Shown in pieces: positions 8,412 to 54,972 of a stretch of DNA of 64,000 nt. The DNA comes from Nanobdellota archaeon. GTDB lineage: Archaea; Nanobdellota; Nanobdellia; Woesearchaeales; GCA-2686295. The stretch is from assembly GCA_018819065.1 (NCBI GenBank), contig JAHJQL010000017.1:35952-99951 (forward strand), read 5' to 3'. The notes under the pieces were generated by a model, which made no database searches, had not been told where the DNA came from, and saw nothing but the letters and a program-made list of their open reading frames with translations. The stretch's first letter is position 1. Each line of letters opens with the position of its first letter. Both the position numbers and the translations under genes were made by a program.

Positions 8412-8422
8412 TTTGTGGATGA

Positions 8423-14560: not shown

Positions 14561-16051
14561 ATGCAAGAACAAATTAAATGGGTTTCTGAAGATGTAAAAA
14601 GAATTACGCTAAACAATATTCCATTAGATGAAATAATAAATAAGAGATATAACCAACAAGACGTGCTGTCATTTGCAGCTGATAGAAGCTTAAGAAACCT
14701 GCCAGAAGATTATAAAATGCTTACAGAACTTTTAGGTAAAGATGTTGTTTTTTACACGACAGGACTTCAAGTTCTCGCTGAAAAGAATCCGAGAATGCTA
14801 CAAAAAATAAATGATGAACAAACAAATGAATATACTCAAAAGCAGAGCATAAAATTAGAAGGTGGAAGGGCTGAATCAGACATAACTGCAGGAGTCTTAT
14901 TAAGTAGTGGTCTTGACAATGGATTTATTAAGATAGGATATCTGGAACCAAAAAACATAGATAAGAAAAACAGGACTCAAAATCTCGATAACATCGAACT
15001 AATAATATCAAACATTCTCAAAGGCGACCAAAAAGCAAATTTTGTAAGAATTACCAATAATGGAACATCATTAGATGTAGAACCACTTAAAGAAAACTCC
15101 CTTTATTCTGACGCATATTATGGAGAAGTTCCAAAAGACATAATCACTGCAAGATTTATGAAACTAATTGCAGAGGCAGCACATATAACTTATACATTAA
15201 CAAATGAAATACCAAAAGAAACAATTCATAGAGCCAAACAAGAAAAAATAGCTGAAATTAACAAGAAAAGAGAAATCTCAGATGAAGAAGCGTTAAGTTC
15301 TTATCATACATACAAAATAATTAATGCATTTAATCTAAGCGAGGAGTTTAAAGAATTATTTTTGCCAATCCAGACAGGTATGAACAACTATGAGAACAAC
15401 CACACAGTAATAATCAGCGACAGGTCACCAAAAAATAGAAAGGAAAAGAATTTTGATGGAAACAAGATTGATCAAGCACCATTCACAAGAGAACTGACGT
15501 TAATTCTAGATTGTGTCCCCGGGTACTTCAACCTTGAAGAGAGAGCCAACTTAGAAAGATTTGCAAGCATTTGCTATAATAAAACAAGCGATGAACTTGA
15601 GCAGGATTTGGAGTATCAAGCATCAAATCACGGGGAGAGGTTTACCAGATCAGTATTAAATGCCAATCACTGCATCAAAGAAGCAGAAAGAATCTACAAC
15701 ACAAAGGGTGGAACACCATTCTTTTTTGAGTATGCAAAAAAATTATCAGATGCAAAAGTGCATTATCAAATGGCAGAAGATTCCATGAAAGTTTTAAACA
15801 AAAACAGTGCGTTAGCAGAAGATGACGCTTTAGAAGTAATTGCTATGATAAAAGAAAGTTTTAGTAACAAGCTCAGATTTGTCAACGAGAACGATTACAA
15901 GATCGATTTAGAGCTTTACAATAAGATTTCTAGACCGTGGATTGCGGAGTCTGAAGGCCAAAGAGTAAACCCAATATATAGAGATATTTCTCAGAAGCCG
16001 ATGACAATAAAGCAATTAGAGGATGGTCTGAAATACACGAAGAATCCTTAA
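14561..16051 (+). CDS. hypothetical protein
   Basis: 496-aa ORF with coding-like composition and no recognisable motif. Its 3' end overlaps the convergent PhoU-like gene by ~120 nt. Confidence 0.5.
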   Translation: MQEQIKWVSEDVKRITLNNIPLDEIINKRYNQQDVLSFAADRSLRNLPEDYKMLTELLGKDVVFYTTGLQVLAEKNPRMLQKINDEQTNEYTQKQSIKLEGGRAESDITAGVLLSSGLDNGFIKIGYLEPKNIDKKNRTQNLDNIELIISNILKGDQKANFVRITNNGTSLDVEPLKENSLYSDAYYGEVPKDIITARFMKLIAEAAHITYTLTNEIPKETIHRAKQEKIAEINKKREISDEEALSSYHTYKIINAFNLSEEFKELFLPIQTGMNNYENNHTVIISDRSPKNRKEKNFDGNKIDQAPFTRELTLILDCVPGYFNLEERANLERFASICYNKTSDELEQDLEYQASNHGERFTRSVLNANHCIKEAERIYNTKGGTPFFFEYAKKLSDAKVHYQMAEDSMKVLNKNSALAEDDALEVIAMIKESFSNKLRFVNENDYKIDLELYNKISRPWIAESEGQRVNPIYRDISQKPMTIKQLEDGLKYTKNP

Positions 16052-16844
16052 GAGCAGACAAAATCAAATCATTAATTTTTTTTCTCGAGTCATAGAATTG
16101 TTTTGCTTTAGTCGAATCATAAGAAAAATATATTTCTGTGACGATATACAAATTATCAAGAACCATTTTTGCAATAAGTTGAGTATTTTTAGATATTTTT
16201 TTGGGCTTTAAATGAGCAAAAAACTTAAAATCATTGCCAAGTTTTTCAACAGCCCATATAAGTGTATAATTCATAAAAGAGCCTGATAGTTCTGGGTTTT
16301 TGTGCATCGCCCGCATACAATAATGCGCAAGCTTATTATTCGCTTGTTCTAACTCAAGCAAATCAGATAAAATAGACTCATCCTCAGTTTCAAGATATTG
16401 AACAATTTTTCTAATCTTTTCACGCAGTAAAAAAATCAACCTATTTTGTATGGATTCAAAATCAGAATTATTCATTTCAGATATTGATTTTACGAGCACA
16501 TAATTCTTTTCTTTTTTTACAATTTCGAACATCGTTGCTTCAACCTTAAGACTTTCTTTTACCTGATTTAGCTCTGACTCATCAGAAAAAAGCACAGTTA
16601 TTTCATCATAACCCCTCTTTGAGAGATTATCAAATTTTCGACGTGTAAGAGAACCATATTTAGAAGCATCTATTACAACTTTAGTTACTGGAGCAACATA
16701 GCTTTCAGGCTTTATCTCAAGCACACCTTTAACAGAGTCTATGTTGAGAATATCACCTTTCTTAAGATTCCACTGCTTAACCCATTTATGCGGAAGGCTA
16801 ACTCCCAAGCTGCTTGAACTCTGTTGGATGACTTTTCTTTGCAT
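15930..16844 (-). CDS. PhoU-domain regulator with N-terminal AbrB/SpoVT-like swapped-hairpin domain
   Basis: N-terminal ...SSLGVSLPHKWVKQWNLKKGDIL (AbrB/MazE-like), followed by PhoU-like helical repeats (...IQNRLIFLLREKIRKIVQYLETED...LELEQANNKLAHYC...). ATG at 16844 is preferred over the TTG at 16862. Confidence 0.7.
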   Translation of the reverse strand: MQRKVIQQSSSSLGVSLPHKWVKQWNLKKGDILNIDSVKGVLEIKPESYVAPVTKVVIDASKYGSLTRRKFDNLSKRGYDEITVLFSDESELNQVKESLKVEATMFEIVKKEKNYVLVKSISEMNNSDFESIQNRLIFLLREKIRKIVQYLETEDESILSDLLELEQANNKLAHYCMRAMHKNPELSGSFMNYTLIWAVEKLGNDFKFFAHLKPKKISKNTQLIAKMVLDNLYIVTEIYFSYDSTKAKQFYDSRKKINDLILSALKDSSCISDHPLIALLSSASEKYLYILGLLFGLQTPQSTV

Positions 16845-16968
16845 AAAGAAGAAGCCAATCAAGAGAACTATTTAAAGTTTTTGAAAAATAGCTATAATAT
16901 ATATTATATAGTGAAAATCTATATATACTTAAATAATACCACTAACTAATAACAACAAAGGTGATAAT

Positions 16969-22575: not shown

Positions 22576-22600
22576 AAAGTTTTTATATTTAAAGTTAACT
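22576..22600 (-). promoter_or_regulatory. archaeal TATA/BRE-like box upstream of the tRNA-like gene
   Basis: The minus-strand TTTAAATATAAAAAC is centred ~27 nt upstream of the putative tRNA 5' end. Confidence 0.45.
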
Positions 22601-25084
22601 TCTTTTTTTCCTTGCAACTGCTCTTCGCTCGTTAAAATCCATTCTTATTCGTTTATAACCAATTATCGCAACGAAGATGAATGCTATGAACACTAAGAAC
22701 CAATTAGCATAGAAGCAAAGCTTATCATAAGCCTGAGAAAGTGTAAACTTATCCCTTCTTACAACTTCAAGAGTTATTCTTGGGCTTAGAGTGAACGCGT
22801 CGTGGTTGTCTACTGCCAGAAAAGAGACATTAGTCACGCCGTACCATCCTTGTTTTGGCATGAATACCACTTTATCTATTGTTATATCTACATTTACAAA
22901 TTCGCTTGAGTCTATGAGTGACAAGTTAACTTTGTCTCCTGCATCAGGGTCAGAAACAAAGGATGATTTTTCAACCTTGAAAGCTTTATCCTGAGCCCAG
23001 ATATAATGAGTTGAACTAGCTTTTGAATAATCTATTAATGGATTTAGAACTGGTGGGCCTATGAAGAAGTAAACTATCCAAAGCAAGATTCCTAGTATTA
23101 CTAAAAGCAACACTAAGAACAAGATGAATTTTCTCTTATTAAGCCAACCCTTCTTCTTCACAAACTTAGCAACAATTGCTAATATTATGATTGCAAATAT
23201 TAATAGTACAGTTACGAATCGGCATGGTTTTTGCGAGAAGTAAAGATATAGCTTGACATAAACAGGCTTGTCTTTGAGACTGACAATTATATTGTTTTTA
23301 TATTCAAAATCGTTGTCAGACTTTATTGTTAGGTCAAGAGTATAATCTCCAAATGGAGTTTTATCAGTGTGATTTGATAATAGTAGGATTTCTTTTGTCT
23401 CTCCTGGGTTAAGCGATAAGGTTTTTTCACTTAGTTTTATCCAGAAATCTTTTGGCTGAAGGGATAAAGAGTATTTTCCAGATTCAAGTCCTTCGTTAGT
23501 TATCTTTATTACTGCTGAGTTTTCTGTATCTCTTCTGATAGAATAAGAGGTTTTTGCTATGCTTGCTTTGTAGCAGCTCCATTGAGACAAAACAACTATG
23601 TTCTTAACCTCGTCTGATGCCTTGACACCATTTTTTAGGACTGCTTCTACCAACAATCCATAAGTTGCATCTTTATCAGGTGGATTTAAAGTAAGCACAA
23701 CATCTTTATCTTCGCCAGGCTCTAAAATTATAGAGTCAGTATCTAACTCAGCGATGGCTGGGTAAGCTTTTAAAGATATCTTTTCTTCATATAACCCCTC
23801 ATTTTTTACATTTACAACTAACTCTTTTTCTGAAGCGCAGAATCTTAAATTCTTATCAACAATAGTTATCTTTGGCTTATAACAATCAATTATATCTAAT
23901 ATAACAGTTTTTTCATTTGATATATTTCCATACCAACTTGTGGATTTGAGAGTGAAGGTATAATAACCAACTTTTACCTGTTTCAAAATAAAATTTATAT
24001 TCTCAGATTTGCTCTCATCCGAACCAAGGCTTACTTGATTAGAGGATAGTTTTACAAAAGAAGGTGCACCTATTAACTCTAAATAATACTTGTTTGGAGT
24101 ATCAACATCATTTTCAATATCAAATTCTATTGGTGCGTATTCTTCCTCACAAACTTCATGATAGTCATCAATGTCTAATGAATAATCATAAAGCTTGTTT
24201 ATGACTAGATCATGTTTGATTTCTGTTTTTAAGCGGTTATTCTCGGCCACAACTGAAAAAATGTTAGGTGTTACTCCAAAAACCGCACAAGAAGGTGTAA
24301 AGGTTGATTTGATGATTCCTTCTTCACCAGGATTTAAAAGAATTGTTTGTGAAGATAAAGTCATGTAAGGCTTATTGGTTATTGGTGTTGCTGTGTATTG
24401 TTCAGAAAATAATCCCGAGTTTTTTATCAATAATTCGTACTCTACAGATTTGCAAGGATCAATATCATCTTTGCTTGCTTTAAGTTTTACATCTAAATTT
24501 TGACATTGAGAAACTACTAATTTCTTTGTTAAAGTAGCTTCTCCATCACCAAGCAGCTTAACAGTTATCTTTAGCGTCTTATCTAAGATGTTGCAAGGAG
24601 CATTTATCTGCAGCAAGACTTCTTGAATTGCTCCGCTTTCTAATTCAAAATAAGAAGGGTTTATGCTTACAAAATCAAGGTTGGATGATAAGCTGTAAGC
24701 GACTTTCTTGTTTTCAGTATTTCTTATTTTTATTGAATCGTTAAGTTTTGAGCATGAACAAACCTTTAAATTAGCATCACCTGTGGCTGCTCCAAACTTC
24801 AAAGGAATTATTGGTGGCTTAGTAGTAATTGTCGGAGTGACTATGGTTGTAGGTGGTGTCTGTTTTGGAACATAAATAATGGTCTGTTGAGAAGGCGAAT
24901 CTGGTATGCTGACAAGATAAACTTCAAAAATTGTTTTTTCATACGGTGGCTGCACAGAGGTCACTGTTTGGTTAACCACTTCTGTATTGATTAGATTAAC
25001 TTCAAAAATCTCTGCACTTGCAAAACTAACTATGAATAGAATTGTTAAAAGAACAACTGAAAACTGTAATTGGTTTTTGTTCAT
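22595..25084 (-). CDS. large cell-surface protein (S-layer/adhesin-like) with signal peptide and membrane-spanning segments
   Basis: N-terminal signal peptide (MNKNQLQFSVVLLTILFIVSFASA), long beta-rich Thr/Ser/Asn-rich ectodomain, two internal TM helices and a C-terminal TM helix. Confidence 0.6.
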   Translation of the reverse strand: MNKNQLQFSVVLLTILFIVSFASAEIFEVNLINTEVVNQTVTSVQPPYEKTIFEVYLVSIPDSPSQQTIIYVPKQTPPTTIVTPTITTKPPIIPLKFGAATGDANLKVCSCSKLNDSIKIRNTENKKVAYSLSSNLDFVSINPSYFELESGAIQEVLLQINAPCNILDKTLKITVKLLGDGEATLTKKLVVSQCQNLDVKLKASKDDIDPCKSVEYELLIKNSGLFSEQYTATPITNKPYMTLSSQTILLNPGEEGIIKSTFTPSCAVFGVTPNIFSVVAENNRLKTEIKHDLVINKLYDYSLDIDDYHEVCEEEYAPIEFDIENDVDTPNKYYLELIGAPSFVKLSSNQVSLGSDESKSENINFILKQVKVGYYTFTLKSTSWYGNISNEKTVILDIIDCYKPKITIVDKNLRFCASEKELVVNVKNEGLYEEKISLKAYPAIAELDTDSIILEPGEDKDVVLTLNPPDKDATYGLLVEAVLKNGVKASDEVKNIVVLSQWSCYKASIAKTSYSIRRDTENSAVIKITNEGLESGKYSLSLQPKDFWIKLSEKTLSLNPGETKEILLLSNHTDKTPFGDYTLDLTIKSDNDFEYKNNIIVSLKDKPVYVKLYLYFSQKPCRFVTVLLIFAIIILAIVAKFVKKKGWLNKRKFILFLVLLLVILGILLWIVYFFIGPPVLNPLIDYSKASSTHYIWAQDKAFKVEKSSFVSDPDAGDKVNLSLIDSSEFVNVDITIDKVVFMPKQGWYGVTNVSFLAVDNHDAFTLSPRITLEVVRRDKFTLSQAYDKLCFYANWFLVFIAFIFVAIIGYKRIRMDFNERRAVARKKRS

Positions 25085-25114: not shown

Positions 25115-26413
25115 TTAGTAATAGGTCTGTGTCTCCGTGTCATCATCCACGCCGCCGTTGTTCTTTCTAAGCTTGTTAAAGCCTATGATTAAGCCGACGA
25201 TTATTAGGATTATTACAAGGACAATCAGTGCTATTTCTAATCCTTTTTTCAAATCACTAGAAGATGACTTTTTTTCATCATCAGTGATTTTCACTGTTAG
25301 TGGAACTACTTTTGAGTCTTTGTCTGTTGAGACCGTCACCAAAAACATTCTTTCACCGCTAACATCTTCATTTGGAGTTATTAAAACTTCAACAGTCTTT
25401 GTCTCTCCGCCTTTTAACACTATTTGTGATCCTGGTGAAAGCATGCTTGTTCCCCAAGAGCTAACTCCTGAAACTGTCAGTGTGTATATCTTTGTTGTTG
25501 TTCCAAAGTTTGTTATGCCCATTGGGAATGAAACTTGTGAACCTTCTTTCACCTCTAGTTTTTCTGGAGCAACAATAGTTGTTTTTGATTCAGACACAGA
25601 TGATGGTGTTGTTGCTGTGCATGTGTCTCCTGGAACAACTGTTAGGTCTGTTGTTTTTGATGTTGATTCATATTCATCAAATTCAACTGTTATCTCTACT
25701 TTGTAAACTCCTGGAGCTGCGCAGTCTGGAATTCTAAGCAAGAATTCTTCTAATGTTTCTTTCTCATCTGCTTCTAACTCGTCAAGGTACTGGTAATCCA
25801 TTATGTTTAGTGCTGGAACTGCAACTTGAACTTTTACATCGTCTAAGTCTGTGTCACCAATGTTTTCAACTTTAACTGTTGCAGTAAATGCTCTTCCAGC
25901 ATTTATTACTGATGATGGACTAAATGAAAAATCTTTTATTATAACTGCATCTTCAGGATCAGTTCCTTCGACGTGTAGTTGATACATCTTTTCGAATGAT
26001 AAGCCATCTTCGTCACCAACTCTCACTCTTAGAATTGTATATTTCTTTTCCATTTTTGTTGGCACTTGAAGTGATAATGTAATTGTGTCTATGTCTCCTT
26101 GTGACATGTCAAATGTTCTTGAAGTTGCTGAGACAAGATTTTCTTCTTTATTAGCATATCTGTAACCATAAATGTCTGCTTCAACTTGAACATTTGAAAG
26201 GTTGTCGAGTGCTTGGACTCTGACTTTCAAATCAAGGTCTTGACCCCTTCTTACTTTCAAGTTGTCTGTGTGTGTTCCAACTTGAGAGCTGTTCATGCTG
26301 TCCATTTCTTCGCCGTTAATCTTTAAGTATAAAACATCTAGATTTATTGCAGCAGCGAAATTCGCAGTTAGTAAAACCGCAATCATTAAAATAAACACTT
26401 TTCCTAAATTCAT
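25115..26413 (-). CDS. cell-surface protein with CARDB/S-layer-like beta domains and C-terminal TM anchor
   Basis: ATG at 26413 gives an MNLGKVFILMIAVLLTANFAAA signal peptide. It has CARDB-like segments (VKVENIGDTDLDDVKVQVAVP), a Thr/Ser-rich stalk, a C-terminal TM IALIVLVIILIIVGLIIGF, and a basic tail. Confidence 0.6.
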   Translation of the reverse strand: MNLGKVFILMIAVLLTANFAAAINLDVLYLKINGEEMDSMNSSQVGTHTDNLKVRRGQDLDLKVRVQALDNLSNVQVEADIYGYRYANKEENLVSATSRTFDMSQGDIDTITLSLQVPTKMEKKYTILRVRVGDEDGLSFEKMYQLHVEGTDPEDAVIIKDFSFSPSSVINAGRAFTATVKVENIGDTDLDDVKVQVAVPALNIMDYQYLDELEADEKETLEEFLLRIPDCAAPGVYKVEITVEFDEYESTSKTTDLTVVPGDTCTATTPSSVSESKTTIVAPEKLEVKEGSQVSFPMGITNFGTTTKIYTLTVSGVSSWGTSMLSPGSQIVLKGGETKTVEVLITPNEDVSGERMFLVTVSTDKDSKVVPLTVKITDDEKKSSSSDLKKGLEIALIVLVIILIIVGLIIGFNKLRKNNGGVDDDTETQTYY

Positions 26414-26567: not shown

Positions 26568-29500
26568 TTAAATTATTCTTACAGGTATCTGCTTCTCCCT
26601 TCTCAAATCATCATTGCCAGTGTAAACACTAAAATAGTAATCTCCTGACTTAATGTTATTAGGTATATAAACGTATGATTTCACGCGCGTTCTCTTTTTA
26701 GCGTGAATATCAACAACACTTAATTGCTCCTTAAGTCCATACTCAGGAATCATAACACCAACTGCGATATCACTGACTTTTTTGTCAAAAGTGTTTTCTA
26801 AAGTGATTGCAACTAATGCATATTCTCCTTTTCTAACTGTGTTATAGTCATACCCATATATTGTGACATCAACTATCTTTACAGCATCACTATCCTCAAG
26901 GCCACTAACAATGGAAAACTCTCTTATATCAGTTGGGCTTTCACAACCAGGATCATCCGGGTAATCAGTTAAACCATCACCATCATTATCAACTCCATCA
27001 GAGCACTGATAATTCACAAATTCAATTACTCTTATCCTAAACAAAGCCGAAGCAGAGAATGTTCCATCAAATACAGACACGTAAAACCAGTGCTGTCCAA
27101 ACTGATCCTGGGTTGGTGTGAAACGTATAACTCCAGAAGTTGAGTTTATATTAAATAAACCAGTATCATCGCTGAAAGTTAAAGGGTCATTATTACTATC
27201 TGAAGCTTGGACTTGGTAAACGAACTCTCTTCCTATATAAGCCACTAAGTCCGCACCTAAAATTGTAGGTGGCATTGAAATTAAGTAAACAGTTAAAGTG
27301 AATGGATCACTAACAGATACTACACCATCAGAGCAACTAATAGTTATAGTGTGAGCACCACCATCTGAAACTGTTGGTGTAAAACTTATCAGTCCGGATG
27401 TTGGATTAATATTAAATAAGTTAGTGTTGTCTGAGTAAGTTATTGGGTCGCCATCAACATCACTGCAAACTACTTGGTAAGTGAAAGTTGAGTTTTCTGT
27501 AGCGTTCATGTCAGGGATTAGCTGCATAATTGGTGCGTCATTAACTGGATTAACAGTTATAGCAAACGTATTGTCTGCAGTTCCGCCATTACCATCACTA
27601 ACCCTAACAGAGCAACTAGCAACACCATTCCAATTCAAAACAGAATGTAACTTAAGAGTGTTACCAACAACCTCACAGTTAACCTGAGCAGTGTTCTCAT
27701 TAACAACAGAGAAACTCAAAACATCACCATCAGCATCAAAAACCAAAGCACTCAAATCAACAACATGAGTAAAAACACCAAAATCCTCATCCAAAGTCAC
27801 ACTTGGGATGCTGCTAGTCCAGACAGGATTATCATTCTGAGAAACAACAGAGAAAACAGCAGAGTCACTATCAGACAAACTACCAGGATCAGATGCAGTA
27901 AAAGTTATAGTCTCAAAACCAAACCAATTAGCATTTGGAACACTAATAGTAGCAACACGAGAAGGACTAATTGAAACAATCAAATCAGTATTACCAACAT
28001 AAGTCCAAGTCATTTCAGAATCAAGATTATCAACATCAGAAACATAATTATCAAGATTTATAGTTGTAAAGGTTTGACCCTCATTAACAGTCTGATCAGG
28101 AATATCAGAAACAACAGGTGCGTCGTTTACTGGATTAACAGTTATAGCAAACGTATTGTCTGCAGTTCCGCCATTACCATCACTAACCCTAACAGAGCAA
28201 CTAGCAACGCCATTCCAATTCAAAACAGAATAAAGCTTAAGAACGCTTCCAACAACCTCACAGTTAACCTGAGCAGTGTTCTCATTAACAACAGAGAAAC
28301 TCAAAACATCACCATCAGCATCAAAAACCAAAGCACTCAAATCAACAACGTGAGTAAAAACCGGGAAATCCTCATCCAAAGTCACACTTGGGATGTTACT
28401 CGTCCAAACAGGATTATCATTCTGAGAAACAACAGAGAAAACAGCAGAGTCACTATCAAACAAACCAGCAGGCGTAACATCAGTTGCAGTGAATGTTATT
28501 GTTTCTGCACCATTCCAATTATTGCTTGGGGGAGTAATGGTTACAACGTTTTGAGAGTTAACATTAACTGTCAAATCAGTGTTTCCTGAGTAAGTCCAAA
28601 CAATAGCATCACCATCAACTTCAATTAAGTAAGTATCTAAATCAAATGATGAGAATGATTGACCCTCATTAATAGTTTGATTAGGAATGTCCAAAACAAC
28701 AGGTGCATCATCAACAGGGTTGATTGTTATAGAAACTAATGCGTTGTTGCTGCTTGAGAATTGGTCTGAACATTTGTAAGTGAAACTATCAGCTCCAAAG
28801 TAATTAAGAGCAGAAGTATATATAACAGTATTGCCAACAACAGAACCTAATGATCCATGAGACGGACTTGACACAATTGAGTAAGTCAGATTATCCCCGT
28901 CAACATCAGAACAATTAAAAGTCACTTGTTTAGAAACATCTTCATTAGTTACAGCAAGTAAAGGATAAGCAACAGGTGCATCATCAACAGGATTAACTGT
29001 TATACTAACGGTGGCGACGTTACTGTAATTAAGTCCGTCAAACGCTTTGAAAGTAAATGAATCTGCTCCGTTGTAATTCTGGTTTGGAGTGTAAGTAACG
29101 TTGTTTCCCAAAAGAGTCAAAAGCACTCCATGAGTTGGCTGTGTTACTATACTATATGTTAATAGGTCATTATCTGCATCTGTTGCAACTAAAGTTATTA
29201 GTTTAGAATTGTCTTCATTTAATGAAACTGCTTGATTATAAGCAACTGGTGCGTGGTTTACTACGACTGCAGGTGTAACAACTATTGTTTTTAATGTTAG
29301 TTCCATGTCATTATCATCATCAATTACTCTAAGAGTTGTCGCGTAAGTTCCACTCTGGTTGAAAGTATATGTGGTATTTTGCGAATAGCTATCAATTGTT
29401 CCGTCACTTAAGAAGTCCCACTGGTACCTAAAAGGAGGATTTCCTTTTGTCACATTACCCCTAAACGAAACTGTCAGTGGTGCTGGTCCTGAAGCTGGAT

Positions 29501-31913
29501 TAGCAATTATCTGCGGAATTGGTCGATAATCACTAACAACTACTTCAGCAGTTGATTGCCGGTCAATAACTCCATGGCTATCTCTAACAGCGAGTCGGAA
29601 TGTCCACCAACCATTATACCGAAAAGTGTAAGTCAAATTGCTTGATGTGCTCCAATTAGTCTCAAAAAAAGGCGGGTGCTGAAGAATCCATTTATATTCT
29701 AATATGTCACCGTCAGGATCATACGAACCAGCACCTGATAAATTAATTGGAAATCCTTCAACGCCACTGTATGGTCCGCCAGCGTTTCCGATTGGAGGGT
29801 CATTAACAGGAATCACATTTATCGTAAATGTGTTATCAGCTGTTCCACCATTACCATCACTAACCCTAACAGAGCAACTAGCAACACCATTCCAATTCAA
29901 AACAGAATGTAACTTAAGAGAATTACCAACAACCTCACAATCAACCTCAGCAGTGTTTTCGTTGATAACAGAAAATGACAAGGAATCACCATCAGCATCA
30001 AACACTAAAGTCCTCAAATCAACAACGTGAGTATAAGTTCCAAAGTCTTCATTCAATATTGCGTTAGGAATACCACTTGTCCAAACAGGAGGATTATTCT
30101 GAGAAACAACAGAGAAAACAGCAGAGTCACTACCAGATAAGTGATTAGGAGTAACATCCGTTGCAGTAAAAGTAATTGTTTCTGCACCATTCCAATAAGC
30201 ACTCGGAGTTGTTATAGTTACAACATTCTGAGCATTAATACTAACAGTTAAAGCAGAGTTACCAGAATAACTCCAAACAACACTATCACCATCAACCTCA
30301 GTAAGATAACTATCCAAATCAAAAGTTGAAAAAGACTGACCTTCATTAATTGTTTGATCAGGAATACCAGAAACAACAGGAGCATCATCAACAGCAGTAA
30401 CTGTTATTAAAACGCTTGCTATATTACTGTTTGAAAAACCATCATTACACTTATAAGTAAAATTATCAGAACCAACATAGTTCTGAGATGGAGTATAAGT
30501 AACATGATTATCAACAACAAAACCCAAAGAACCATGATATGGATTTTTTGAAACAACAAAATAAGTTAATGAACCACTATCAACATCAGAACAATTAAAA
30601 ACAACCTGCTTAGAAACATCCTCATAAGTAAAAACACTAACAGGATAAGCAACAGGAGCATCATCAACTGGATTAACAGTTATAGCAAACGTATTGTCTG
30701 CTGTTCCGCCGTTGCCATCACTAACCCTAACAGAGCAACTAGCAACGCCATTCCAATTCAAAACAGAAACAAGCTTAAGAACGCTTCCAACAACCTCACA
30801 ATCAACCTGAGCAGTGTTCTCACTAACAACAGAGAAAGATAAGGAATCACCATCAACATCAGAAACTAAACTTAGCAAGTTTCCAACATGAACAACAGTT
30901 CCAAAATCCTCATCAAGATTTGCATTAGGAATGTTACTAGTCCAGACAGGAACATCATTAACTGGAGTAACAGTAATTGAAACAGCAGCAACACCACTAT
31001 CCAAAGAACCATCATTACACTTATAAGTAAAACTATCAACACTATTAAAATTCTGAGCAGGAGAATAAACAACCTTATCACCAACAACAGAACTTAAAGT
31101 TCCATGAACAGGATTTGAAACAACAAAATAAGTTAAATAATCACCATCAACGTCAAAACAATTAAAAACAACCTGCTTAGAAACATCCTCAAAAGTAAAA
31201 ACACTAACAGGATAAGCAACAGGAGCATCATTAACAGGAGTAACAGTAATTAAAACTGTTGCTGTGCTTAAACCACCATAACCATCGCTAGCTGTGTAAG
31301 TAAAACTATCAGCACCATAATAATTTGTATTTGGAGTATAATAAAGATTTGAATTTGTTTTTGTTAATGTACCGTGTGCTGGTTGTGTAAAAGAATTTAT
31401 TGATAAAACATCACCATTTGGATCAGAATCATTTAGCAATACATTAAATAAATTGTTTGAGCTATCTTCTTGAACAGTAAAAGCATCATTTCTTGCAACT
31501 GGATTTTGATTTGTTGCTGTGAATGTTAAGTAATCCCAATCACTTGAATATTGGTCACCTGCATATATTTCTATTTGATAGGTTCCAGGAGCATTGTAAT
31601 CAATTTTTTGAACTATTTGTGTTCCATTAATATTAGTAACGCCACCAACACCATTGTTTATTCCGCTCACATATGTTTTTACAACTTGTTGTTGACTGTT
31701 TAATAATTTAATACTGTAAGTTGTAGGAGGATTCATACTAAATACAGACCAAAATAAACTAACTGTTTGTCCGTTGGAAAATGATATTGTATCTCCTGAT
31801 ATTGGATTTCCATTTTGATCAAGCCATTGAATAACACCCAGTGCTGCTTGTGTTGATTGAGCAAAAAATCCTAACATAAAAAATAAAATTATAGGAAGTA
31901 TGATTTTTTTCAT
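26568..31913 (-). CDS. giant (1781 aa) secreted adhesin with tandem cadherin/VCBS-like repeats, PKD domain and Cys/Asp-rich DNDGDG motif
   Basis: Signal peptide MKKIILPIILFFMLGFFAQSTQA. Repeated modules ...SDGNGGTADNTFAITVNPVNDAPV... and ...NDAPVAYPVSVFTYEDVSKQVVFNCSDVD.. occur at least 6 times. A PKD signature RYQWDFLSDGTIDSYSQNTTYTFNQSGTYATTLRVIDDD is present, along with CSDGVDNDGDGLTDYPDDPGC near the C-terminus. Confidence 0.8.
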   Translation of the reverse strand: MKKIILPIILFFMLGFFAQSTQAALGVIQWLDQNGNPISGDTISFSNGQTVSLFWSVFSMNPPTTYSIKLLNSQQQVVKTYVSGINNGVGGVTNINGTQIVQKIDYNAPGTYQIEIYAGDQYSSDWDYLTFTATNQNPVARNDAFTVQEDSSNNLFNVLLNDSDPNGDVLSINSFTQPAHGTLTKTNSNLYYTPNTNYYGADSFTYTASDGYGGLSTATVLITVTPVNDAPVAYPVSVFTFEDVSKQVVFNCFDVDGDYLTYFVVSNPVHGTLSSVVGDKVVYSPAQNFNSVDSFTYKCNDGSLDSGVAAVSITVTPVNDVPVWTSNIPNANLDEDFGTVVHVGNLLSLVSDVDGDSLSFSVVSENTAQVDCEVVGSVLKLVSVLNWNGVASCSVRVSDGNGGTADNTFAITVNPVDDAPVAYPVSVFTYEDVSKQVVFNCSDVDSGSLTYFVVSKNPYHGSLGFVVDNHVTYTPSQNYVGSDNFTYKCNDGFSNSNIASVLITVTAVDDAPVVSGIPDQTINEGQSFSTFDLDSYLTEVDGDSVVWSYSGNSALTVSINAQNVVTITTPSAYWNGAETITFTATDVTPNHLSGSDSAVFSVVSQNNPPVWTSGIPNAILNEDFGTYTHVVDLRTLVFDADGDSLSFSVINENTAEVDCEVVGNSLKLHSVLNWNGVASCSVRVSDGNGGTADNTFTINVIPVNDPPIGNAGGPYSGVEGFPINLSGAGSYDPDGDILEYKWILQHPPFFETNWSTSSNLTYTFRYNGWWTFRLAVRDSHGVIDRQSTAEVVVSDYRPIPQIIANPASGPAPLTVSFRGNVTKGNPPFRYQWDFLSDGTIDSYSQNTTYTFNQSGTYATTLRVIDDDNDMELTLKTIVVTPAVVVNHAPVAYNQAVSLNEDNSKLITLVATDADNDLLTYSIVTQPTHGVLLTLLGNNVTYTPNQNYNGADSFTFKAFDGLNYSNVATVSITVNPVDDAPVAYPLLAVTNEDVSKQVTFNCSDVDGDNLTYSIVSSPSHGSLGSVVGNTVIYTSALNYFGADSFTYKCSDQFSSSNNALVSITINPVDDAPVVLDIPNQTINEGQSFSSFDLDTYLIEVDGDAIVWTYSGNTDLTVNVNSQNVVTITPPSNNWNGAETITFTATDVTPAGLFDSDSAVFSVVSQNDNPVWTSNIPSVTLDEDFPVFTHVVDLSALVFDADGDVLSFSVVNENTAQVNCEVVGSVLKLYSVLNWNGVASCSVRVSDGNGGTADNTFAITVNPVNDAPVVSDIPDQTVNEGQTFTTINLDNYVSDVDNLDSEMTWTYVGNTDLIVSISPSRVATISVPNANWFGFETITFTASDPGSLSDSDSAVFSVVSQNDNPVWTSSIPSVTLDEDFGVFTHVVDLSALVFDADGDVLSFSVVNENTAQVNCEVVGNTLKLHSVLNWNGVASCSVRVSDGNGGTADNTFAITVNPVNDAPIMQLIPDMNATENSTFTYQVVCSDVDGDPITYSDNTNLFNINPTSGLISFTPTVSDGGAHTITISCSDGVVSVSDPFTLTVYLISMPPTILGADLVAYIGREFVYQVQASDSNNDPLTFSDDTGLFNINSTSGVIRFTPTQDQFGQHWFYVSVFDGTFSASALFRIRVIEFVNYQCSDGVDNDGDGLTDYPDDPGCESPTDIREFSIVSGLEDSDAVKIVDVTIYGYDYNTVRKGEYALVAITLENTFDKKVSDIAVGVMIPEYGLKEQLSVVDIHAKKRTRVKSYVYIPNNIKSGDYYFSVYTGNDDLRREKQIPVRII
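27533..28700. repeat. two tandem ~583-bp near-identical coding repeats inside the adhesin gene
   Basis: ggtgcgtc...ggattaacagttatagcaaacgtattgtctgcagttccgccattaccatcactaaccctaacagagcaactagcaac... recurs at 27533 and 28116 with only a few mismatches over hundreds of bp. Confidence 0.8.
29800..30045. repeat. third copy of the adhesin module repeat (high identity to 27540-27760)
   Basis: Shares ccattaccatcactaaccctaacagagcaactagcaacaccattccaattcaaaacagaatgtaacttaagag with copy 1. Confidence 0.75.
30660..30900. repeat. fourth copy of the adhesin module repeat
   Basis: ggattaacagttatagcaaacgtattgtctgctgttccgccgttgccatcactaaccctaacagagcaactagcaacgccattccaattcaaaacag... Confidence 0.75.
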
Positions 31914-33439
31914 TTTCTTCTACCTCCAGGTAAATTGTTTCTGTTATGATAAGGTTTACCACCACCAAAATTATACTTCAAATCAATTGAAGTGTTCATG
32001 CTTCCATTTTTCCATCCTGGTACGTCAAATGATGGTTTGTTTTCATTTAAGTATCCTACTCCTAGTTTAAAGCCTAATTTATCAGATAAATCAACACCAA
32101 CATTTAATCCACCACCATATGATAAAGTTGTAGAATTCTTTTCATTTCTTGTTATGTGAGCATCATCAGGCAAACCATTCTTAAAATCTCTTTCATAAGT
32201 TGTATTTGTTTTGTTTCGAGTGTTTGATTGTATTCTTCCAAAGAGTCCTACAACAAAATTTTTGAATCTTTTGTAAACTCCAAGTTCTCCACCAAAACCA
32301 GATAATCGTTTGAATTCTTCTTCTCTTGAACCTTCAAAATAACCATTATTTGGAAACACTTGTTTTGTACTGTTGATGTTTTGAGGTAATGTCATAAAAG
32401 CAGTTCCTTCAATTCCATAATTATTATTAAAAGCATAACCAAGCATAACTCTTGCTTCGCTAACAGGTTTTGACCCGTTTGCAACATTCATTCCATAACC
32501 TGCACCTATTGAAATTGGAGACTTGTTAACTTTAACAAACAACGTGTCTGTATCTCCTTTAACAATGTTAGTTATTATTTTAGTTGCTGGACTGTATGTA
32601 TCCATTAGCTTTTGAAGATATACAGGATCATCTAATGCTTTTGAGATAAGATAGTTTCTCACAAATTTTTTGAAATCTTCAAAAGGAACTAATGTATCAT
32701 CATGTTCAAGTATCATGATGTGTTCTCGATCCGTGTTTTTTCCATTTTGATCTGTTGTTTTTTGTACACGTTTTTTGATGTTTGGAGCTAATGCTTTTGT
32801 AATTTTTCCAGTGTAATATATATCTTTTATATCTCCACCTTCTTTCCATTCAACACGAACACGACTTGTGTCTATTGGAATAATTTCACCTTTTGGATTT
32901 ACAATTTTTATTTTTTTTATTTGATTATTAACTTTTGCTCTTTGATTTTCAGGAACGTTGTATCCGTATAACATTTCTGAAAGAATATCTAAAGTTGTAG
33001 AATGCCATGTTTGGCTTTCCCAAGTTTTATAATCTCCTGCTTTAATTAGCATATCTATAGTTAGAGGAACATATGTTTCATTTGTAATAAAATTTTCATT
33101 AAATGGATTACTAATATCTGAGATTTTATTTGTTTTTGGATCAACGTTTGTTAATCGAGGAGTTCCATCTGTTTTTTTTATAGGTACAAATCGGTGTCTT
33201 GATTCATTATATACATTATCAGTTCCAAATATTTCATTAAGATAATCTTTGTGAGTCATATTTTTGAAGAGAAGATTGTCTAATGCTACGGAATCAATTT
33301 TAGAAGCGATAAATGTTGTATCAGATTTGATATCGTTCTGAGTAATTGTTTGTTCTATTGTGTGTTTCTTTGCTTCTTGAAGAATTTCAAAGTCTCTGAC
33401 AGCATCTGGTGAACCAATTGGAAATAAAGAATTTATCAT
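31910..33439 (-). CDS. hypothetical protein with Gly/Asn/aromatic-rich beta-strand C-terminal half, translationally coupled to the adhesin gene
   Basis: The stop overlaps the adhesin ATG (ATGA at 31910-31913). The C-terminal half shows an alternating amphipathic pattern (GAGYGMNVANG...LGYAFNNNYGIEGTAF...LGVYKRF.NFVVGLFGRIQ...LSYGGGLNVGVDLSDKLGFKLGVGYL...SIDLKYNF) reminiscent of membrane beta-barrels. No N-terminal signal peptide is visible. Confidence 0.55.
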   Translation of the reverse strand: MINSLFPIGSPDAVRDFEILQEAKKHTIEQTITQNDIKSDTTFIASKIDSVALDNLLFKNMTHKDYLNEIFGTDNVYNESRHRFVPIKKTDGTPRLTNVDPKTNKISDISNPFNENFITNETYVPLTIDMLIKAGDYKTWESQTWHSTTLDILSEMLYGYNVPENQRAKVNNQIKKIKIVNPKGEIIPIDTSRVRVEWKEGGDIKDIYYTGKITKALAPNIKKRVQKTTDQNGKNTDREHIMILEHDDTLVPFEDFKKFVRNYLISKALDDPVYLQKLMDTYSPATKIITNIVKGDTDTLFVKVNKSPISIGAGYGMNVANGSKPVSEARVMLGYAFNNNYGIEGTAFMTLPQNINSTKQVFPNNGYFEGSREEEFKRLSGFGGELGVYKRFKNFVVGLFGRIQSNTRNKTNTTYERDFKNGLPDDAHITRNEKNSTTLSYGGGLNVGVDLSDKLGFKLGVGYLNENKPSFDVPGWKNGSMNTSIDLKYNFGGGKPYHNRNNLPGGRRK

Positions 33440-33625: not shown

Positions 33626-34687
33626 ATGGATATCAAAATAATCGGTGGTGGACCTGTTGGCTGTTACTCTGCAGCCATTCTTTCAAAAAAACACAACGTG
33701 ACAATTTATGAAGAGCACAAAGAAACAGGTAAACCAATCCAGTGCACAGGAATACTCACAGACACAATAAATGAGATAATAAAACTAAAAAAAGAATTTG
33801 TGGCAAACAAGATATACGCAACGAGAGTTTATGCTCCAAACAAAGAAAACATTCGCATAAACTTCAAAAAACCAAACATAATAGTGTATAGAGATGAATT
33901 TGACAAATACTTCTTGGACAAAGCATTAAAAGGCGGAGCAAAGATAAATTACAATAATCAGTTTGTAAAAAGAGATGAAGTTTTAGACAAAATAACAAAC
34001 AAAACCACAACGATAAAATATGATTTGTTAGTTGGCGCTGATGGGCCTCTTAGCAAAGTCTCACAAACATTTGGGCTTGGAAGGAGAGATTACTTAGTTG
34101 GAGTTCAAGCAATAATTAAAAAGAAGAATGACAACGTTGTAGATTTCTATCCTCATATTGGAACTTACGCGTGGGCTGTTCCTGAATCTGAAGAAGTGTT
34201 AAGAGTTGGTGTTGCTGCAGAGAAAAACCCATTAGCCATCTTTAAAGATTTTTCAAAGAAGTATAAAGGAAAAATAATTAGTATGCAGGGAGGAATAATA
34301 CCACTTCACAAACCAAAGTTAATAACTTCAAAAGAAAAAGTATTCTTGGTTGGTGACGCTGCAGCTCAGATAAAAAACACTACTGGAGGAGGTCTTGTTC
34401 CTGGTTTGATGGCTGCAGAAGAGTTAAGCAAAGCAATCAACGAAGATAAAAATTATGAAACGCTGTGGAGAAATAGAATTGGAAGAGACCTCTTTGCACA
34501 TTACAAACTAAGAAAGATAATGAATAATTTCAAAGAAGAAGACTGGAACAAGCTAATAAAAATATTAAATGAAGATAGAATAAAAGAAGTGCTGTCAAAA
34601 GAAAGCAGAGACAAACCACTAAAAATAATAAGCAATATTTTGATTAGAAAACCCTCACTCTTAAAATTTGTCAAACAACTGTTTTAA
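33626..34687 (+). CDS. geranylgeranyl reductase-family FAD-dependent oxidoreductase
   Basis: N-terminal dinucleotide-binding IIGGGPVGCYSAAIL, plus LVGADGPLSKVS and FLVGDAAAQIKNTTGGG motifs typical of the archaeal GGR/ChlP family. Confidence 0.8.
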   Translation: MDIKIIGGGPVGCYSAAILSKKHNVTIYEEHKETGKPIQCTGILTDTINEIIKLKKEFVANKIYATRVYAPNKENIRINFKKPNIIVYRDEFDKYFLDKALKGGAKINYNNQFVKRDEVLDKITNKTTTIKYDLLVGADGPLSKVSQTFGLGRRDYLVGVQAIIKKKNDNVVDFYPHIGTYAWAVPESEEVLRVGVAAEKNPLAIFKDFSKKYKGKIISMQGGIIPLHKPKLITSKEKVFLVGDAAAQIKNTTGGGLVPGLMAAEELSKAINEDKNYETLWRNRIGRDLFAHYKLRKIMNNFKEEDWNKLIKILNEDRIKEVLSKESRDKPLKIISNILIRKPSLLKFVKQLF

Positions 34688-34714: not shown

Positions 34715-35400
34715 TTATTTAAAACTCAAAATTGCATTCTTATGTTTTTCAAAAACTTTTTGATCAAAATATCCATATACTCCTGATAGCCCATCTTTAA
34801 ATTGTTTTGAGGAGATTTTCTCAATGATTTTCGCGATTCTGTCTTTGAAATCACACCTCATTTGAATTTCGGATTTCATCCATTCCTTATTTTTGGATTT
34901 TGGAAACATCATAAACACATCTCTTATGTCGGTGGATCTGCACGATATGATTTTCATAACAAGCAGTGCATCGATGTTTATTATTCGCATCTCGAGTTCT
35001 TCAGTAATGGTTTTTCCTCTCAGTATTTTAATACTTGAGTTTTCAAAAATCCAATCCGCTACAAATATTGCTCCAGTCATTCTGTCTGTTACATTACATA
35101 TCAATACATCCATGGTTACTGAAAAATTGTTATTAAGCTTTTTTTCATATCTGGAGAAGCTTTTAGAATATTGTGCATTTTGTGGATGTCTTTCTTTTTT
35201 GTAGCCGATTTTTAAGAGAATTGGTTCTATTTTTTCAACGCAGTTTCATCTTTAATCACAATGTCGCAGTCTACTGAAAATCTTGACAAGGTATAGGTAT
35301 TGACAGCATATCCTCCTATAATAGCAAAATCACAGTTTCTTAATTCTTTAAGAGTCTTAAATATTTCTTCTTCTCTTAGAGATAAAAAGTCTTTAATCAT
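34715..35400 (-). pseudogene. AbiEii/DUF1814-like nucleotidyltransferase, frameshifted
   Basis: ATG at 35400 (overlapping the upstream stop as ATGA) encodes MIKDFLSLREEEIFKTLKELRNCDFAIIGGYAVNTYTLSRFSVDCDIVIKDETALKK*. The GG.A...R.S.D.D motif is characteristic of AbiEii. The frame of ORF 34715..35113, read upstream, continues ...EKIEPILLKIGYKKERHPQNAQYSKS...MDVLICNV..., so the two are joined by a -1/+1 shift near a T6 run at 35231-35236. Confidence 0.5.
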
Positions 35401-35996
35401 GCTAATGCTCCATATTTCTTCTTAATATATTCTGATGCATACGCATACACGTCATTTGATTTTGCATATTTTATTGTTTCTTTTAATGAATCGACTTTGA
35501 ATCCGTTTTTTTCTTCAAATGATAATGAACTTACAGGAATCAAAATAATAAACTCTCCTATCGTTCCTCCTGAATTGATATAATTAGATATTTCATTTCT
35601 ATTAAAAAATGTCTTCCAATATTTCAAGTCTTTTTTCAAAATCTTAATGAAATAAGGAGACTTTTCCAAGCCTCTTTGCACATAGGAAAAATCAGACCAG
35701 ATTTCCACTGCCGACAATTGCGTGAATGCATATATCTTCCCTGCATTCTTGATAATCTCAGGGACTCGAAATTCCAATAATCCCCTTATAACGTCTGTTG
35801 GATTTATGCAAGAATATGTTCCTTGAGAATTTTTTTTGATCCATCCTGTCCTCAACAATAAAGAAAATATCTTCTTTTTCATGCTCGTAGAAACTATCCA
35901 ATCTAACTCGGACTGTCTGAATTCTCCACTCGTACTGTGTTTTGAAAACAACAAAGCATATGCTTTTAATCCATATTGAGGAATTTCAATCGCCAT
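35397..35996 (-). CDS. putative AbiEi-like antitoxin/transcriptional regulator
   Basis: 199-aa protein directly upstream of the AbiEii-like NTase with a 4-nt ATGA overlap, the arrangement typical of abiEi-abiEii. Confidence 0.4.
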   Translation of the reverse strand: MAIEIPQYGLKAYALLFSKHSTSGEFRQSELDWIVSTSMKKKIFSLLLRTGWIKKNSQGTYSCINPTDVIRGLLEFRVPEIIKNAGKIYAFTQLSAVEIWSDFSYVQRGLEKSPYFIKILKKDLKYWKTFFNRNEISNYINSGGTIGEFIILIPVSSLSFEEKNGFKVDSLKETIKYAKSNDVYAYASEYIKKKYGALA

Positions 35997-44250: not shown

Positions 44251-44583
44251 TTGATGCAAATAATACAAATAATAGGAATACTATTCGCACTATTTGCGTA
44301 TAGCAGGACTATCCTAAGATTTAAAGACAAGAGAATTACAGCAAAAGAGTTCTTGTTCTGGACAATAGTGTGGGTGGGTGTGATAATTGTTGCAATAATT
44401 CCTGGAGTTATGAGTGGGCTGTCAAGATTTTTAGGAATAGGAAGACCAATCGATATAATCGTCTACGCAAGCATAATAATCTTGTTTTACTTGATATTTC
44501 GAATTTATGTTAAAATCGAAGATGTTGAGCAAAACATCACAAAGATAGTTAGAGAAACTGCAATTAGAAGAAAGAAAAAATGA
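44251..44583 (+). CDS. DUF2304-like small membrane protein
   Basis: 110 aa, 3 TM helices plus a basic tail, a family usually adjacent to glycosyltransferases. Its stop overlaps the GT4 start. Confidence 0.5.
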   Translation: MMQIIQIIGILFALFAYSRTILRFKDKRITAKEFLFWTIVWVGVIIVAIIPGVMSGLSRFLGIGRPIDIIVYASIIILFYLIFRIYVKIEDVEQNITKIVRETAIRRKKK

Positions 44584-46273: not shown

Positions 46274-46310
46274 TTAACTATTTATATTCTTTTTAATTCT
46301 TAAAAAAAAG

Positions 46311-47756: not shown

Positions 47757-47762
47757 TATAAA

Positions 47763-49103: not shown

Positions 49104-49387
49104 AAAAGAACTACAGGCATTATGATCAAGAAAAATTTCTAGAAGCCCTTGAAAACATAGATAAGAAAAAAACTAATAAAATACTAGATTTAGGTTCTGG
49201 CAAGGGAGATTTCACACATGAAATACAGTCAGTATTCAAAGGTTCTAGGATAACTGCAACAAAGATATATAAATGGCTTTACAAGAAACGACTTAAAATA
49301 TTTACTAGAACAGCACAAATTTACAATAGAAAAAGGTCTTGTTACAAAGGTTTTTTTATCAGAAAACAAACACATACCGCTGCTTGA
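49100..49387 (+). pseudogene. truncated class-I SAM methyltransferase fragment
   Basis: Only motif I (ILDLGSGKGDFT) is present and the ORF is 95 aa. It overlaps the Schlafen-like gene stop by 4 nt. Confidence 0.4.
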
Positions 49388-49428
49388 AAAAATAATACCC
49401 AAAATAGCACTATCACAAATATAGATTT

Positions 49429-50456: not shown

Positions 50457-50488
50457 ATTATTAGAATAAATTTCAAGTTCATAAAATA

Positions 50489-51487: not shown

Positions 51488-51510
51488 AAATAAATTTCAG
51501 ATGTGCTAAA

Positions 51511-54970: not shown

Positions 54971-54972
54971 AA

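Follow-up and report, generated by a model that had tools for sequence, protein, structure and literature searches.

Transmembrane beta-barrels of the outer-membrane-protein (OMP) class are seen as a hallmark of organelles and of the outer membranes of bacteria. What role could a protein with the features of such a barrel play beside a giant adhesin in an archaeon? The question is raised by a gene pair in a 64,000-nucleotide (nt) stretch of DNA, hereafter the window, which spans positions 35,952 to 99,951 of contig JAHJQL010000017.1 in the metagenome-assembled genome (MAG) GCA_018819065.1 of a DPANN archaeon of the Nanoarchaeota/Woesearchaeota type. The upstream gene of the pair encodes a 509-amino-acid (aa) protein with a beta-rich C-terminal half, and the downstream gene, which it overlaps, encodes a 1781-aa repeat protein. 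An earlier interpretation made from the letters of the DNA alone (the sequence-only reading) likened the pair to bacterial two-partner secretion systems and proposed that it could be a horizontally acquired module or, failing that, that the 509-aa protein could be a novel chaperone or anchor. Below we describe structure modelling that supports well the assignment of residues 306-491 of this protein to the OMP-type barrel fold class, and we tentatively favour an explanation in which an Ail/OmpX-like membrane-embedded barrel may be made together with an anchorless adhesin and serve as its membrane foothold.

The gene pair and the predicted fold of its upstream product

The two genes and the parts of the upstream one are laid out as follows.
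31910..33439, minus strand: gene for the 509-aa protein (N-terminal orphan domain, OMP-like beta-barrel and short tail)
32525..33439, minus strand: N-terminal domain, residues 1-305, mixed alpha/beta, no known family
31967..32524, minus strand: predicted transmembrane-type beta-barrel, residues 306-491 (~186 aa; AlphaFold2, Foldseek, Pfam below threshold)
31910..31966, minus strand: tail, residues 492-509 and stop codon, Gly/Arg-rich and disordered, bearing the Shine-Dalgarno motif of the adhesin gene and the ATGA overlap
26568..31913, minus strand: gene for the 1781-aa adhesin (secreted repeat protein of the fibrillar adhesin type)

The two open reading frames (ORFs) share the tetranucleotide ATGA, in which the adhesin ATG (31913-31911) overlaps the TGA of the barrel gene (31912-31910); an overlap of stop and start had been stated by the sequence-only reading and is confirmed. 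A Shine-Dalgarno (SD) motif, GGAGGT (31927-31922), is located 8 nt before the adhesin ATG, within the last codons of the 509-aa gene. At a GC content of about 33%, ORFs as long as 509 and 1781 codons do not arise by chance, and homologues exist for both. Overlaps are present in 11 of the 33 same-strand neighbouring gene pairs of the window, so that the overlap alone is unremarkable, and it was dropped as a special feature in itself. The host is archaeal, as had been supposed from the sequence, because the 509-aa protein is identical to KJ583_03990, deposited as 'MAG: hypothetical protein' of a Nanoarchaeota archaeon, and because the window carries archaeal genes for a 953-aa STT3/AglB protein, an RFC-type AAA+ clamp loader and a YGR210-like Obg GTPase. 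The identical 509-aa protein is found in four NCBI MAG records and in Logan, ENA and JGI assemblies, on contigs of up to 141.7 kb.

The C-terminal 204 residues of the 509-aa protein consist of Gly to 14%, Asn to 12% and Phe, Tyr and Trp together to 12%, contain no Cys, and display a strong amphipathic beta alternation. The AlphaFold2 model of residues 306-509, built from a three-sequence alignment (A2), is an all-beta meander with strands of 10-28 residues (pLDDT 83.6, pTM 0.69; pLDDT 79-84 across the five models), in which only the last 13 residues are disordered (pLDDT below 50 for domain residues 192-204). A Foldseek comparison of this model with the PDB yielded 73 matches at E<=1e-3, and all 50 among the matches listed are bacterial outer-membrane barrels. 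Barrels of the 8-stranded class come first, namely the transmembrane (TM) domain of OmpA (4e-8), Ail (5e-8; TM-score 0.55-0.57 on the target) and OmpX (6e-6), followed by NspA (TM-score 0.58), OmpW and OprF-N, with a probability of 1.00 for each of these. Among predicted viral structures (BFVD), the best-scoring matches (probability ~1.0; best E 3.7e-9, TM 0.55) are phage-borne or OMP-annotated barrels, and a few low-probability rows are maturation proteins of single-stranded RNA phages.

Profile comparisons point in the same direction. The Pfam family OMP_b-brl (PF13505) is matched by all three known members of the protein family, in the same part of the profile (E-values of 0.0017, 9.9e-5 and ~0.003), and is the sole Pfam family below E 0.05 that the three have in common. 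Composition-preserving shuffles produced an OMP match in none of seven cases, so the signal is not compositional. The barrel pattern discerned by the sequence-only reading in the C-terminal half of the protein is thus supported, and structure prediction returned neither a beta-sandwich nor a jelly-roll. On this modelling, the barrel fold class is well supported for residues 306-491; homology of the domain with bacterial OMPs is likely, if unproven, and an ancient bacterial or phage origin is possible.

When the DSSP assignments are mapped onto the alignment, eight segments (309-320, 326-336, 341-350, 380-391, 395-404, 438-450, 455-466 and 480-491) have one hydrophobic or aromatic face, with 5-6 large residues of this kind per segment, and one Gly-rich and charged face in all three sequences. 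Four other segments (353-362, 368-379, 405-420 and 423-437) are polar on both faces. These patterns suggest a topology in which eight strands cross the membrane and are joined, on the side where both termini lie, by turns of 2-4 residues, and in which the four central strands would run ~12-15 residues past the membrane as a polar 4-stranded sheet, the 'fishing rod' layout of OmpX and Ail. The hydrophobic face would point outward, to lipid, because some 40 bulky side chains cannot fit inside a narrow barrel.

The same geometry bears on the idea that the domain is a soluble, cytoplasmic beta-barrel, which might bind lipids or act on the giant pre-protein as a holdase or chaperone. A chaperone would agree with the translational coupling of the two genes, and a soluble protein with the lack of a signal peptide or TM segment in the window protein and with archaea having, as far as we know, no outer membrane and no beta-barrel assembly machinery (BAM). 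Against this stand the structural matches, which are almost exclusively to membrane barrels, the length of the strands, and the division into a hydrophobic and a Gly/charged face, with more bulky side chains than the interior of an 8-10-strand barrel should hold and with a Gly-rich exterior, if the faces were reversed, that would be atypical of soluble sheets. A signal peptide is, moreover, present in the orthologue from Woesearchaeota (see below). We regard a soluble barrel as unlikely.

How widespread is this protein? When 1.84 billion representative proteins were searched exhaustively with HMMER, two relatives were recovered, which makes a family of three sequences. One (P0002; 37% identity over residues 197-508) comes from a taxonomically unassigned 1.6-kb JGI metagenome contig (locus L005) and is truncated at the contig end, so that its N-terminus is not covered; the other (P0003; 26% identity over residues 306-491) represents a cluster that includes NQU98249.1 of 'Candidatus Woesearchaeota archaeon' (locus L004). 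Both family members with a taxonomic label are DPANN archaea, and no bacterial relative was found at E 1e-3 among the 1.84 billion representatives. Word-indexed searches with the protein, the three-sequence alignment and the Woesearchaeota orthologue returned the queries themselves and nothing else; two scans of metagenome contigs for the family returned nothing, and neither the protein nor the barrel profile found a meaningful sequence match in the PDB. A hidden Markov model (HMM) of the barrel domain detected no paralogue in the window or in L004; a weak match at 6811-7584 is a PepSY-like anchored protein and was rejected as a barrel.

These distributions are hard to reconcile with a recent transfer from bacteria or phages, or with a mis-binned bacterial contig. 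Such an origin is brought to mind by the otherwise bacterial or phage distribution of the OMP_b-brl class and by a low-GC island of the window that holds heptose genes of the bacterial lipopolysaccharide (LPS)-core type as well as GT9 heptosyltransferases. Yet the barrel gene is located amid archaeal genes (AglB/STT3, RFC) on a 141.7-kb contig that is found in several assemblies, its only homologues are a Woesearchaeota protein with the same gene neighbours and a taxonomically unassigned metagenome protein whose gene adjoins a member of the same adhesin family, and its GC content (0.306 versus 0.345 nearby) is no strong foreign signal. Recent transfer or mis-binning is accordingly very unlikely, and the horizontally acquired module put forward in the sequence-only reading finds no support here. 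That reading had taken homologues that were all archaeal to speak against acquisition; the labelled homologue is indeed archaeal, and the other is encoded on the unassigned contig.

The N-terminal domain (residues 1-305), a fast-evolving orphan, has no match in Pfam, NCBIfam or PDB sequences, and in the N-domains of all three members no Pfam family appears at E<=10 except for a chance-level match to an OB domain. It is partly shared with P0002 (within the 37% identity over 197-508, including a W-H-S-T motif), and no similarity is detectable between the N-domains of the window protein and the Woesearchaeota orthologue. A single-sequence AlphaFold model of the full 509-aa protein was unusable (pLDDT 32). 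At the other end, KYNF, which the sequence-only reading took for the C-terminus, occupies residues 488-491 at the end of the last predicted strand and is followed by 18 more residues, GGGKPYHNRNNLPGGRRK. In the three members the tail after the last strand, which ends in F, I or P, is 15-18 residues long, and the C-terminal beta-signal with an aromatic residue in the very last position is absent from all three. The Gly-rich portions of these tails (LPGGRRK, LPSGKRGGN and LGGGE) coincide with the SD motif. The odd tail is probably explained by its doubling as the ribosome-binding site of the adhesin gene, and the absence of a terminal aromatic residue by the shaping of the tail through this second coding role.

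Conservation of the pair and anatomy of the adhesin

The stop codon of the barrel gene overlaps the start of an adhesin orthologue, with an SD motif, in all three known loci, so that the pairing reported for the window by the sequence-only reading extends to L004 and L005. In the Woesearchaeota locus L004 the barrel-gene stop overlaps the adhesin ATG (GGAGGAGGAGAATGA), and in L005 the stop TAA overlaps the ATG (TAATG) and is preceded by GGGGTGG (GGGGTGGCAACTAATG); the ORF that follows the barrel gene in L005 is the N-terminus of an adhesin orthologue. The surrounding block is collinear between the window and L004: two EamA genes, GT2 and FAD reductase on one side, and barrel, adhesin, S-layer-like protein and an 829-aa large membrane protein on the other. 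Identities between the two loci are 73-75% for the EamA proteins, 72% for GT2 and 63% for the FAD reductase, compared with 26% for the barrel protein, 47% for the C-terminal 534 aa of the adhesin, 60% for the S-layer-like protein and 43% for the 829-aa protein. The barrel protein is therefore the fastest-evolving product of the block (26% versus 43-75%), as expected of an exposed interaction protein. Judged from these loci, the surface block with the barrel and adhesin genes is confined to one narrow lineage of DPANN archaea, for which NCBI uses the names Woesearchaeota and Nanoarchaeota.

By its predicted domains, the 1781-aa protein has the usual anatomy of a fibrillar adhesin, running from a signal peptide through an Ig-like domain, a repeat stalk, two He_PIG domains and an acidic motif to a terminal beta-sandwich-like domain. 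Its landmarks are the following.
31515..31913, minus strand: signal peptide MKKIILPIILFFMLGFFAQSTQA (residues 1-23) and conserved N-terminal Ig-like domain (24-133)
29280..29804, minus strand: two PKD domains, residues ~704-878, in the middle of the stalk (Pfam PKD_4, PKD)
26571..28163, minus strand: conserved C-terminal block, residues 1251-1781 (aligned with the L004 adhesin over 534 residues at 47% identity)

The Pfam matches comprise Big_9 (14 stretches, E 3e-137, 448 bits), Cadherin_5 (325 bits), Cadherin_4, PKD_4/PKD and He_PIG; in NCBIfam, the protein matches the tandem-95 repeat NF012211 in 14 stretches (461 bits against a cutoff of 90, E 1e-141) and a VCBS repeat. The cadherin/VCBS-like and PKD modules named in the sequence-only reading are thus confirmed, and so is its DNDGDG Cys motif, if below threshold: the acidic double-disulfide repeat NF033662 (CSDGVDNDGDG...C; residues 1634-1659, nt 26937-27014) scores 31 bits, under the cutoff of 41. 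The two ends of the adhesin are conserved between loci, whereas the length of the stalk varies (1781 versus 1057 aa). The N-terminal region is 52% identical to the adhesin fragment of L005 and 36% identical to the L004 adhesin, and the C-terminal block contains the last tandem-95 repeats, both He_PIG Ig domains, the acidic motif and the terminal beta-sandwich-like domain. In L004, the terminal domain of the adhesin resembles the NPCBM_assoc/CARDB part of a 457-aa neighbour (28% identity, E 3e-4). Within the adhesin gene of the window, 300-nt repeats reach 94% DNA identity (27532-27831 versus 28117-28416, with further copies at 29794 and 30655); repeats this similar in DNA point to recent duplication or gene conversion, and carry some risk that short-read assembly misjudged their number.

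No anchor could be recognized in the adhesin, either as a TM helix or as a sortase or archaeosortase signal; residues 1-23 are its sole hydrophobic segment, and its C-terminus (...REKQIPVRII) is polar. Both surface proteins encoded downstream (432 and 829 aa) are, unlike the adhesin, TM-anchored.

Candidate roles for the barrel

The comparison with two-partner secretion, in which the 509-aa protein would be a TpsB-like outer-membrane transporter for the adhesin, draws on the adjacency of a barrel gene and a large repeat-adhesin gene, as in TpsB/TpsA (type Vb) systems. The resemblance ends there. There is no match to Omp85, ShlB or Bac_surface_Ag, either at E<=0.01 with the whole protein or at E<=10 with the barrel domain, no POTRA domain in the N-domains of the three members (Pfam, E<=10), and no TPS (Haemagg_act) domain in the adhesin (Pfam and NCBIfam). 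In place of a 16-strand Omp85 barrel, the prediction here is a ~186-residue barrel of ~8 strands, too small to pass a polypeptide, and the adhesin bears an ordinary Sec-type signal peptide of its own. Two-partner secretion can hardly be the explanation, and on this point the sequence-only reading does not hold. Classical and inverse autotransporters were likewise rejected, the locus having two ORFs with a stop between them, the second with its own signal peptide, and no Autotransporter or IAT_beta match in Pfam.

The barrel would be an anchor or dock rather than a secretion pore, because a polypeptide cannot pass through the inside of an 8-strand barrel and because the fibre brings a signal peptide of its own. 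We tentatively propose that a single mRNA gives rise to both proteins and that they function jointly: the adhesin would be exported through its own Sec-type signal peptide, the barrel protein would be seated in a lipid membrane, be it the archaeon's own, a host's or an unrecognised outer layer, with the short turns, the N-domain and the C-terminal tail on its cis side, opposite the projecting sheet, and the anchorless fibre would be held through either the cis-side N-domain or the projecting sheet. This is the novel anchor that the sequence-only reading had kept as its fallback, and to us it appears a plausible reading, held with less than even confidence. Barrels of the OmpX/Ail/Opa/NspA type serve as adhesion proteins, and OmpA, OmpX and PagP fold into bilayers in vitro in the absence of BAM. 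If the window protein is exported, as the signal peptide of its orthologue (MNTKTFYALLAFLGITTVGANQIIA, Sec-type) suggests, and has the canonical OMP orientation, the membrane concerned should be either that of the host cell or an unrecognised outer layer.

Several observations weigh against this proposal. The structure comes from an alignment of three sequences, and both the strand count and the closure of the barrel are deduced from DSSP in combination with hydrophobicity; DSSP itself gives nine elements, with 341-350 and 353-362 read as one kinked strand. Neither the window protein (16.8-19 bits) nor the Woesearchaeota orthologue (18.1 bits) reaches the PF13505 gathering cutoff of 28.7 bits, and one of the three reversed controls, the P0002 barrel, gave a weak match to OMP_b-brl_2 (E 0.039), so that part of the OMP profile signal is generic membrane beta-hairpin periodicity. 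The window protein has neither a signal peptide nor a TM helix (maximum 19-residue Kyte-Doolittle hydropathy 0.68), and the 11 in-frame codons between the upstream stop and its start leave no room for a signal peptide, so that the proposal offers no route for its export, while the orthologue does have such a peptide. We know of no archaeal machinery for beta-barrel insertion and of no outer membrane in this lineage, and no Bam, Lpt or Lpx genes are present in the ~85 kb of the genome that is visible. Finally, conserved adjacency is only moderate evidence for interaction, given that the loci come from related organisms (63-75% identity of the neighbouring enzymes) and that overlaps are common in the window. 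The evidence is computational throughout, from sequences and models, and concerns a family of three members.

A rival possibility is that the barrel protein is an independent Ail/OmpX-like membrane-inserting surface or host-interaction factor that is co-transcribed with the adhesin, both being part of the cell-surface programme, and has no contact with it. The fold and sequence evidence is the same for this factor as for an anchor; in a compact genome, overlapping neighbours are common, and the synteny of fairly closely related loci may be plain inheritance. Furthermore, bacterial 8-strand OMPs are known to adhere without partners. On the other hand, the overlap and the internal SD motif are kept in all three loci despite 26% identity of the barrels and a swapped N-domain, and the adhesin has no anchor of its own. 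We consider an independent factor somewhat unlikely, though it deserves to be taken seriously.

A bolder variant of the anchor proposal is that the barrel is exported and inserts itself, without BAM, into the membrane of the host cell, with the N-domain in the intercellular gap holding the adhesin or the S-layer. By analogy with the Tir-intimin pair, in which a microbe places its own membrane receptor for its adhesin in the partner cell, such an arrangement would be conceivable, and we consider it distinctly improbable. The alternative to insertion in the host would be an outer lipid layer that has gone unrecognised in this lineage.

Comparison with known systems helps to define what is particular to this pair. 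Ail/OmpX/Lom/NspA-type barrels (PF13505, clan MBB) provide the best structural matches and the only consistent profile match, and the present domain is like them in size (~150-190 residues), in the alternating faces, and in the short turns on the terminus side combined with strands that are extended on the other side. It differs from them in its archaeal host with no known outer membrane or BAM, in scoring below the Pfam threshold, in the extra N-domain of 180-300 residues, in the 15-18-residue tail with no terminal aromatic beta-signal, in the lack of a signal peptide in the window copy, and in the coupling of its gene to that of a giant adhesin. OmpA, the top Foldseek match, likewise combines a small barrel with a soluble domain on the terminus (cis) side, where that domain ties the membrane to the wall; the OmpA-like two-domain layout suggests, by analogy, a tethering role. 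Here, in contrast, the soluble domain comes first, the N-domain is neither OmpA_C nor a member of another known family, and there is no peptidoglycan.

Intimin and invasin (inverse autotransporters, type Ve) show the same order of cis domain, barrel and Ig-repeat fibre, which in the window is split at the overlapping stop and start; the differences are two polypeptides instead of one, ~8 strands rather than 12, no IAT_beta/Autotransporter match and a fibre exported by its own signal peptide. An archaeal surface locus with a large anchorless secreted protein beside a smaller putative membrane anchor is also familiar from the SlaA/SlaB S-layer of Sulfolobales, a likeness by description only, since SlaB has a C-terminal TM helix and a signal peptide as opposed to the putative beta-barrel here, and since the present locus has separate S-layer-type proteins with TM helices. 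The searchable literature yielded no account of an OMP-type barrel in either Woesearchaeota or Nanoarchaeota; the nearest report is of a possible distal relative of the PopA porin-like superfamily of Bdellovibrio in DPANN-labelled, double-membraned Altiarchaeales (PMC12228718). That case is similar in combining an OMP-like barrel, a DPANN-labelled archaeon and a predator or symbiont context, and involves a different family. What is new here is thus the setting, that is, an archaeal, adhesin-coupled, two-domain protein with an OMP-class barrel, the class of small OMP barrels being known in itself.

Genomic surroundings and significance

The genes that flank the pair are listed below in the order of their coordinates.
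22595..25084, minus strand: 829-aa multi-Ig membrane protein with a signal peptide and three TM segments, last gene of the conserved block
25115..26413, minus strand: S-layer-type protein of 432 aa, start ATG at 26413 (the mechanical ORF starts at 26488)
33626-34687, plus strand: FAD-dependent geranylgeranyl-reductase-like gene (Pfam), divergently transcribed, kept in L004
34715-35996, minus strand: two orphan genes (132 and 199 aa), no Pfam family, absent from L004
36070-36795, minus strand: GT2 (Pfam), kept in L004
36744-37453, minus strand: two EamA half-transporters (Pfam), kept in L004
37500-40361: STT3/AglB (953 aa), next after the EamA genes

The S-layer-like, multi-Ig, GT2, EamA and AglB neighbours place the barrel-adhesin pair in a cell-envelope and glycosylation region. 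The 432-aa protein, with a signal peptide, Ig-like domains (Pfam NPCBM_assoc and CARDB) and a C-terminal TM anchor, passes the cutoff of NCBIfam NF033506, 'PACE-CTERM-PROT putative S-layer protein' (139.5 bits; cutoff 110). The 154-nt spacer that precedes its gene contains a TTTATATA box and a GGGGGT motif; the gene probably has its own promoter, and because of these two elements the barrel and adhesin genes appear to form a separate bicistronic unit. A scan for sigma-70 promoters and terminators was uninformative for an archaeon (38 sites versus 44.7 expected). The orphan pair at 34715-35996 is inserted between the FAD reductase and GT2 genes of the window, whose arrangement is otherwise collinear with that of L004.

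Elsewhere in the window, a 763-aa T2SSE-type secretion or pilus ATPase overlaps by 11 nt a 746-aa protein with no known family (778-5299, plus strand); the two possibly belong to a machine resembling type IV pili, such as is often encoded next to S-layer genes in archaea. WYL-domain and Bro-N-domain genes at 7905-9325 (minus strand) are replaced in the sister assembly GCA_018819945.1 (locus L007, 7338-9968) by another set that includes ParE-like toxins, which marks a strain-variable defence or mobile spot. A 310-aa protein (15930-16862, minus strand), in which an N-terminal MazE/AbrB-type antitoxin domain is fused to a long C-terminal part of no assigned nature, is encoded by an ORF that runs into the end of the convergent ORF 14561-16051. 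Not far beyond the window, the 141.7-kb source contig terminates with an rve-family transposase/integrase that is located beside sugar genes ~3.5 kb past the right end of the window (locus L008, 69-932).

The low-GC island mentioned above is a glycan-biosynthesis region (44251-62404, mostly plus strand; GC 0.23-0.30 over 49.5-60 kb). It includes bacterial LPS-core-type heptose genes, namely SIS_2 (GmhA-like; 45713-46273) and a fusion of PfkB and cytidylyltransferase (HldE/RfaE-like; 46311-47756), two GT9 heptosyltransferases (51511-52467 and 54973-56127), GT4s, an epimerase, two B12-radical-SAM enzymes, several methyltransferases and a Wzx/MurJ-type flippase (60914-62404). Genes for lipid A were not seen. 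The island probably makes a heptose-containing surface glycan rather than LPS, which is unusual for an archaeon. Amid the sugar-biosynthesis genes a Schlafen AlbA_2 + HATPase_c_4 + HTH protein is encoded (47763-49103, plus strand), an architecture that is often tied to defence or regulation.

How DPANN archaea fasten to their hosts and exchange material with them is an open question, for which the barrel-plus-fibre pair offers concrete, clonable candidates: the small size of the barrel domain permits refolding and liposome-insertion assays, and both conserved ends of the adhesin are suited to binding tests. The pair is relevant, too, to the question of whether small OMP-like barrels can function in a membrane that is not bacterial and in the absence of BAM, and an archaeal OMP-like barrel tied to a fibre of the host-contact type would surprise specialists. 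Should the variant with insertion in the host membrane prove true, it would give Archaea their first functional transmembrane beta-barrel, and the episymbiont would be riveted to its host by a self-supplied, translocated membrane receptor that is functionally similar to the Tir-intimin system.

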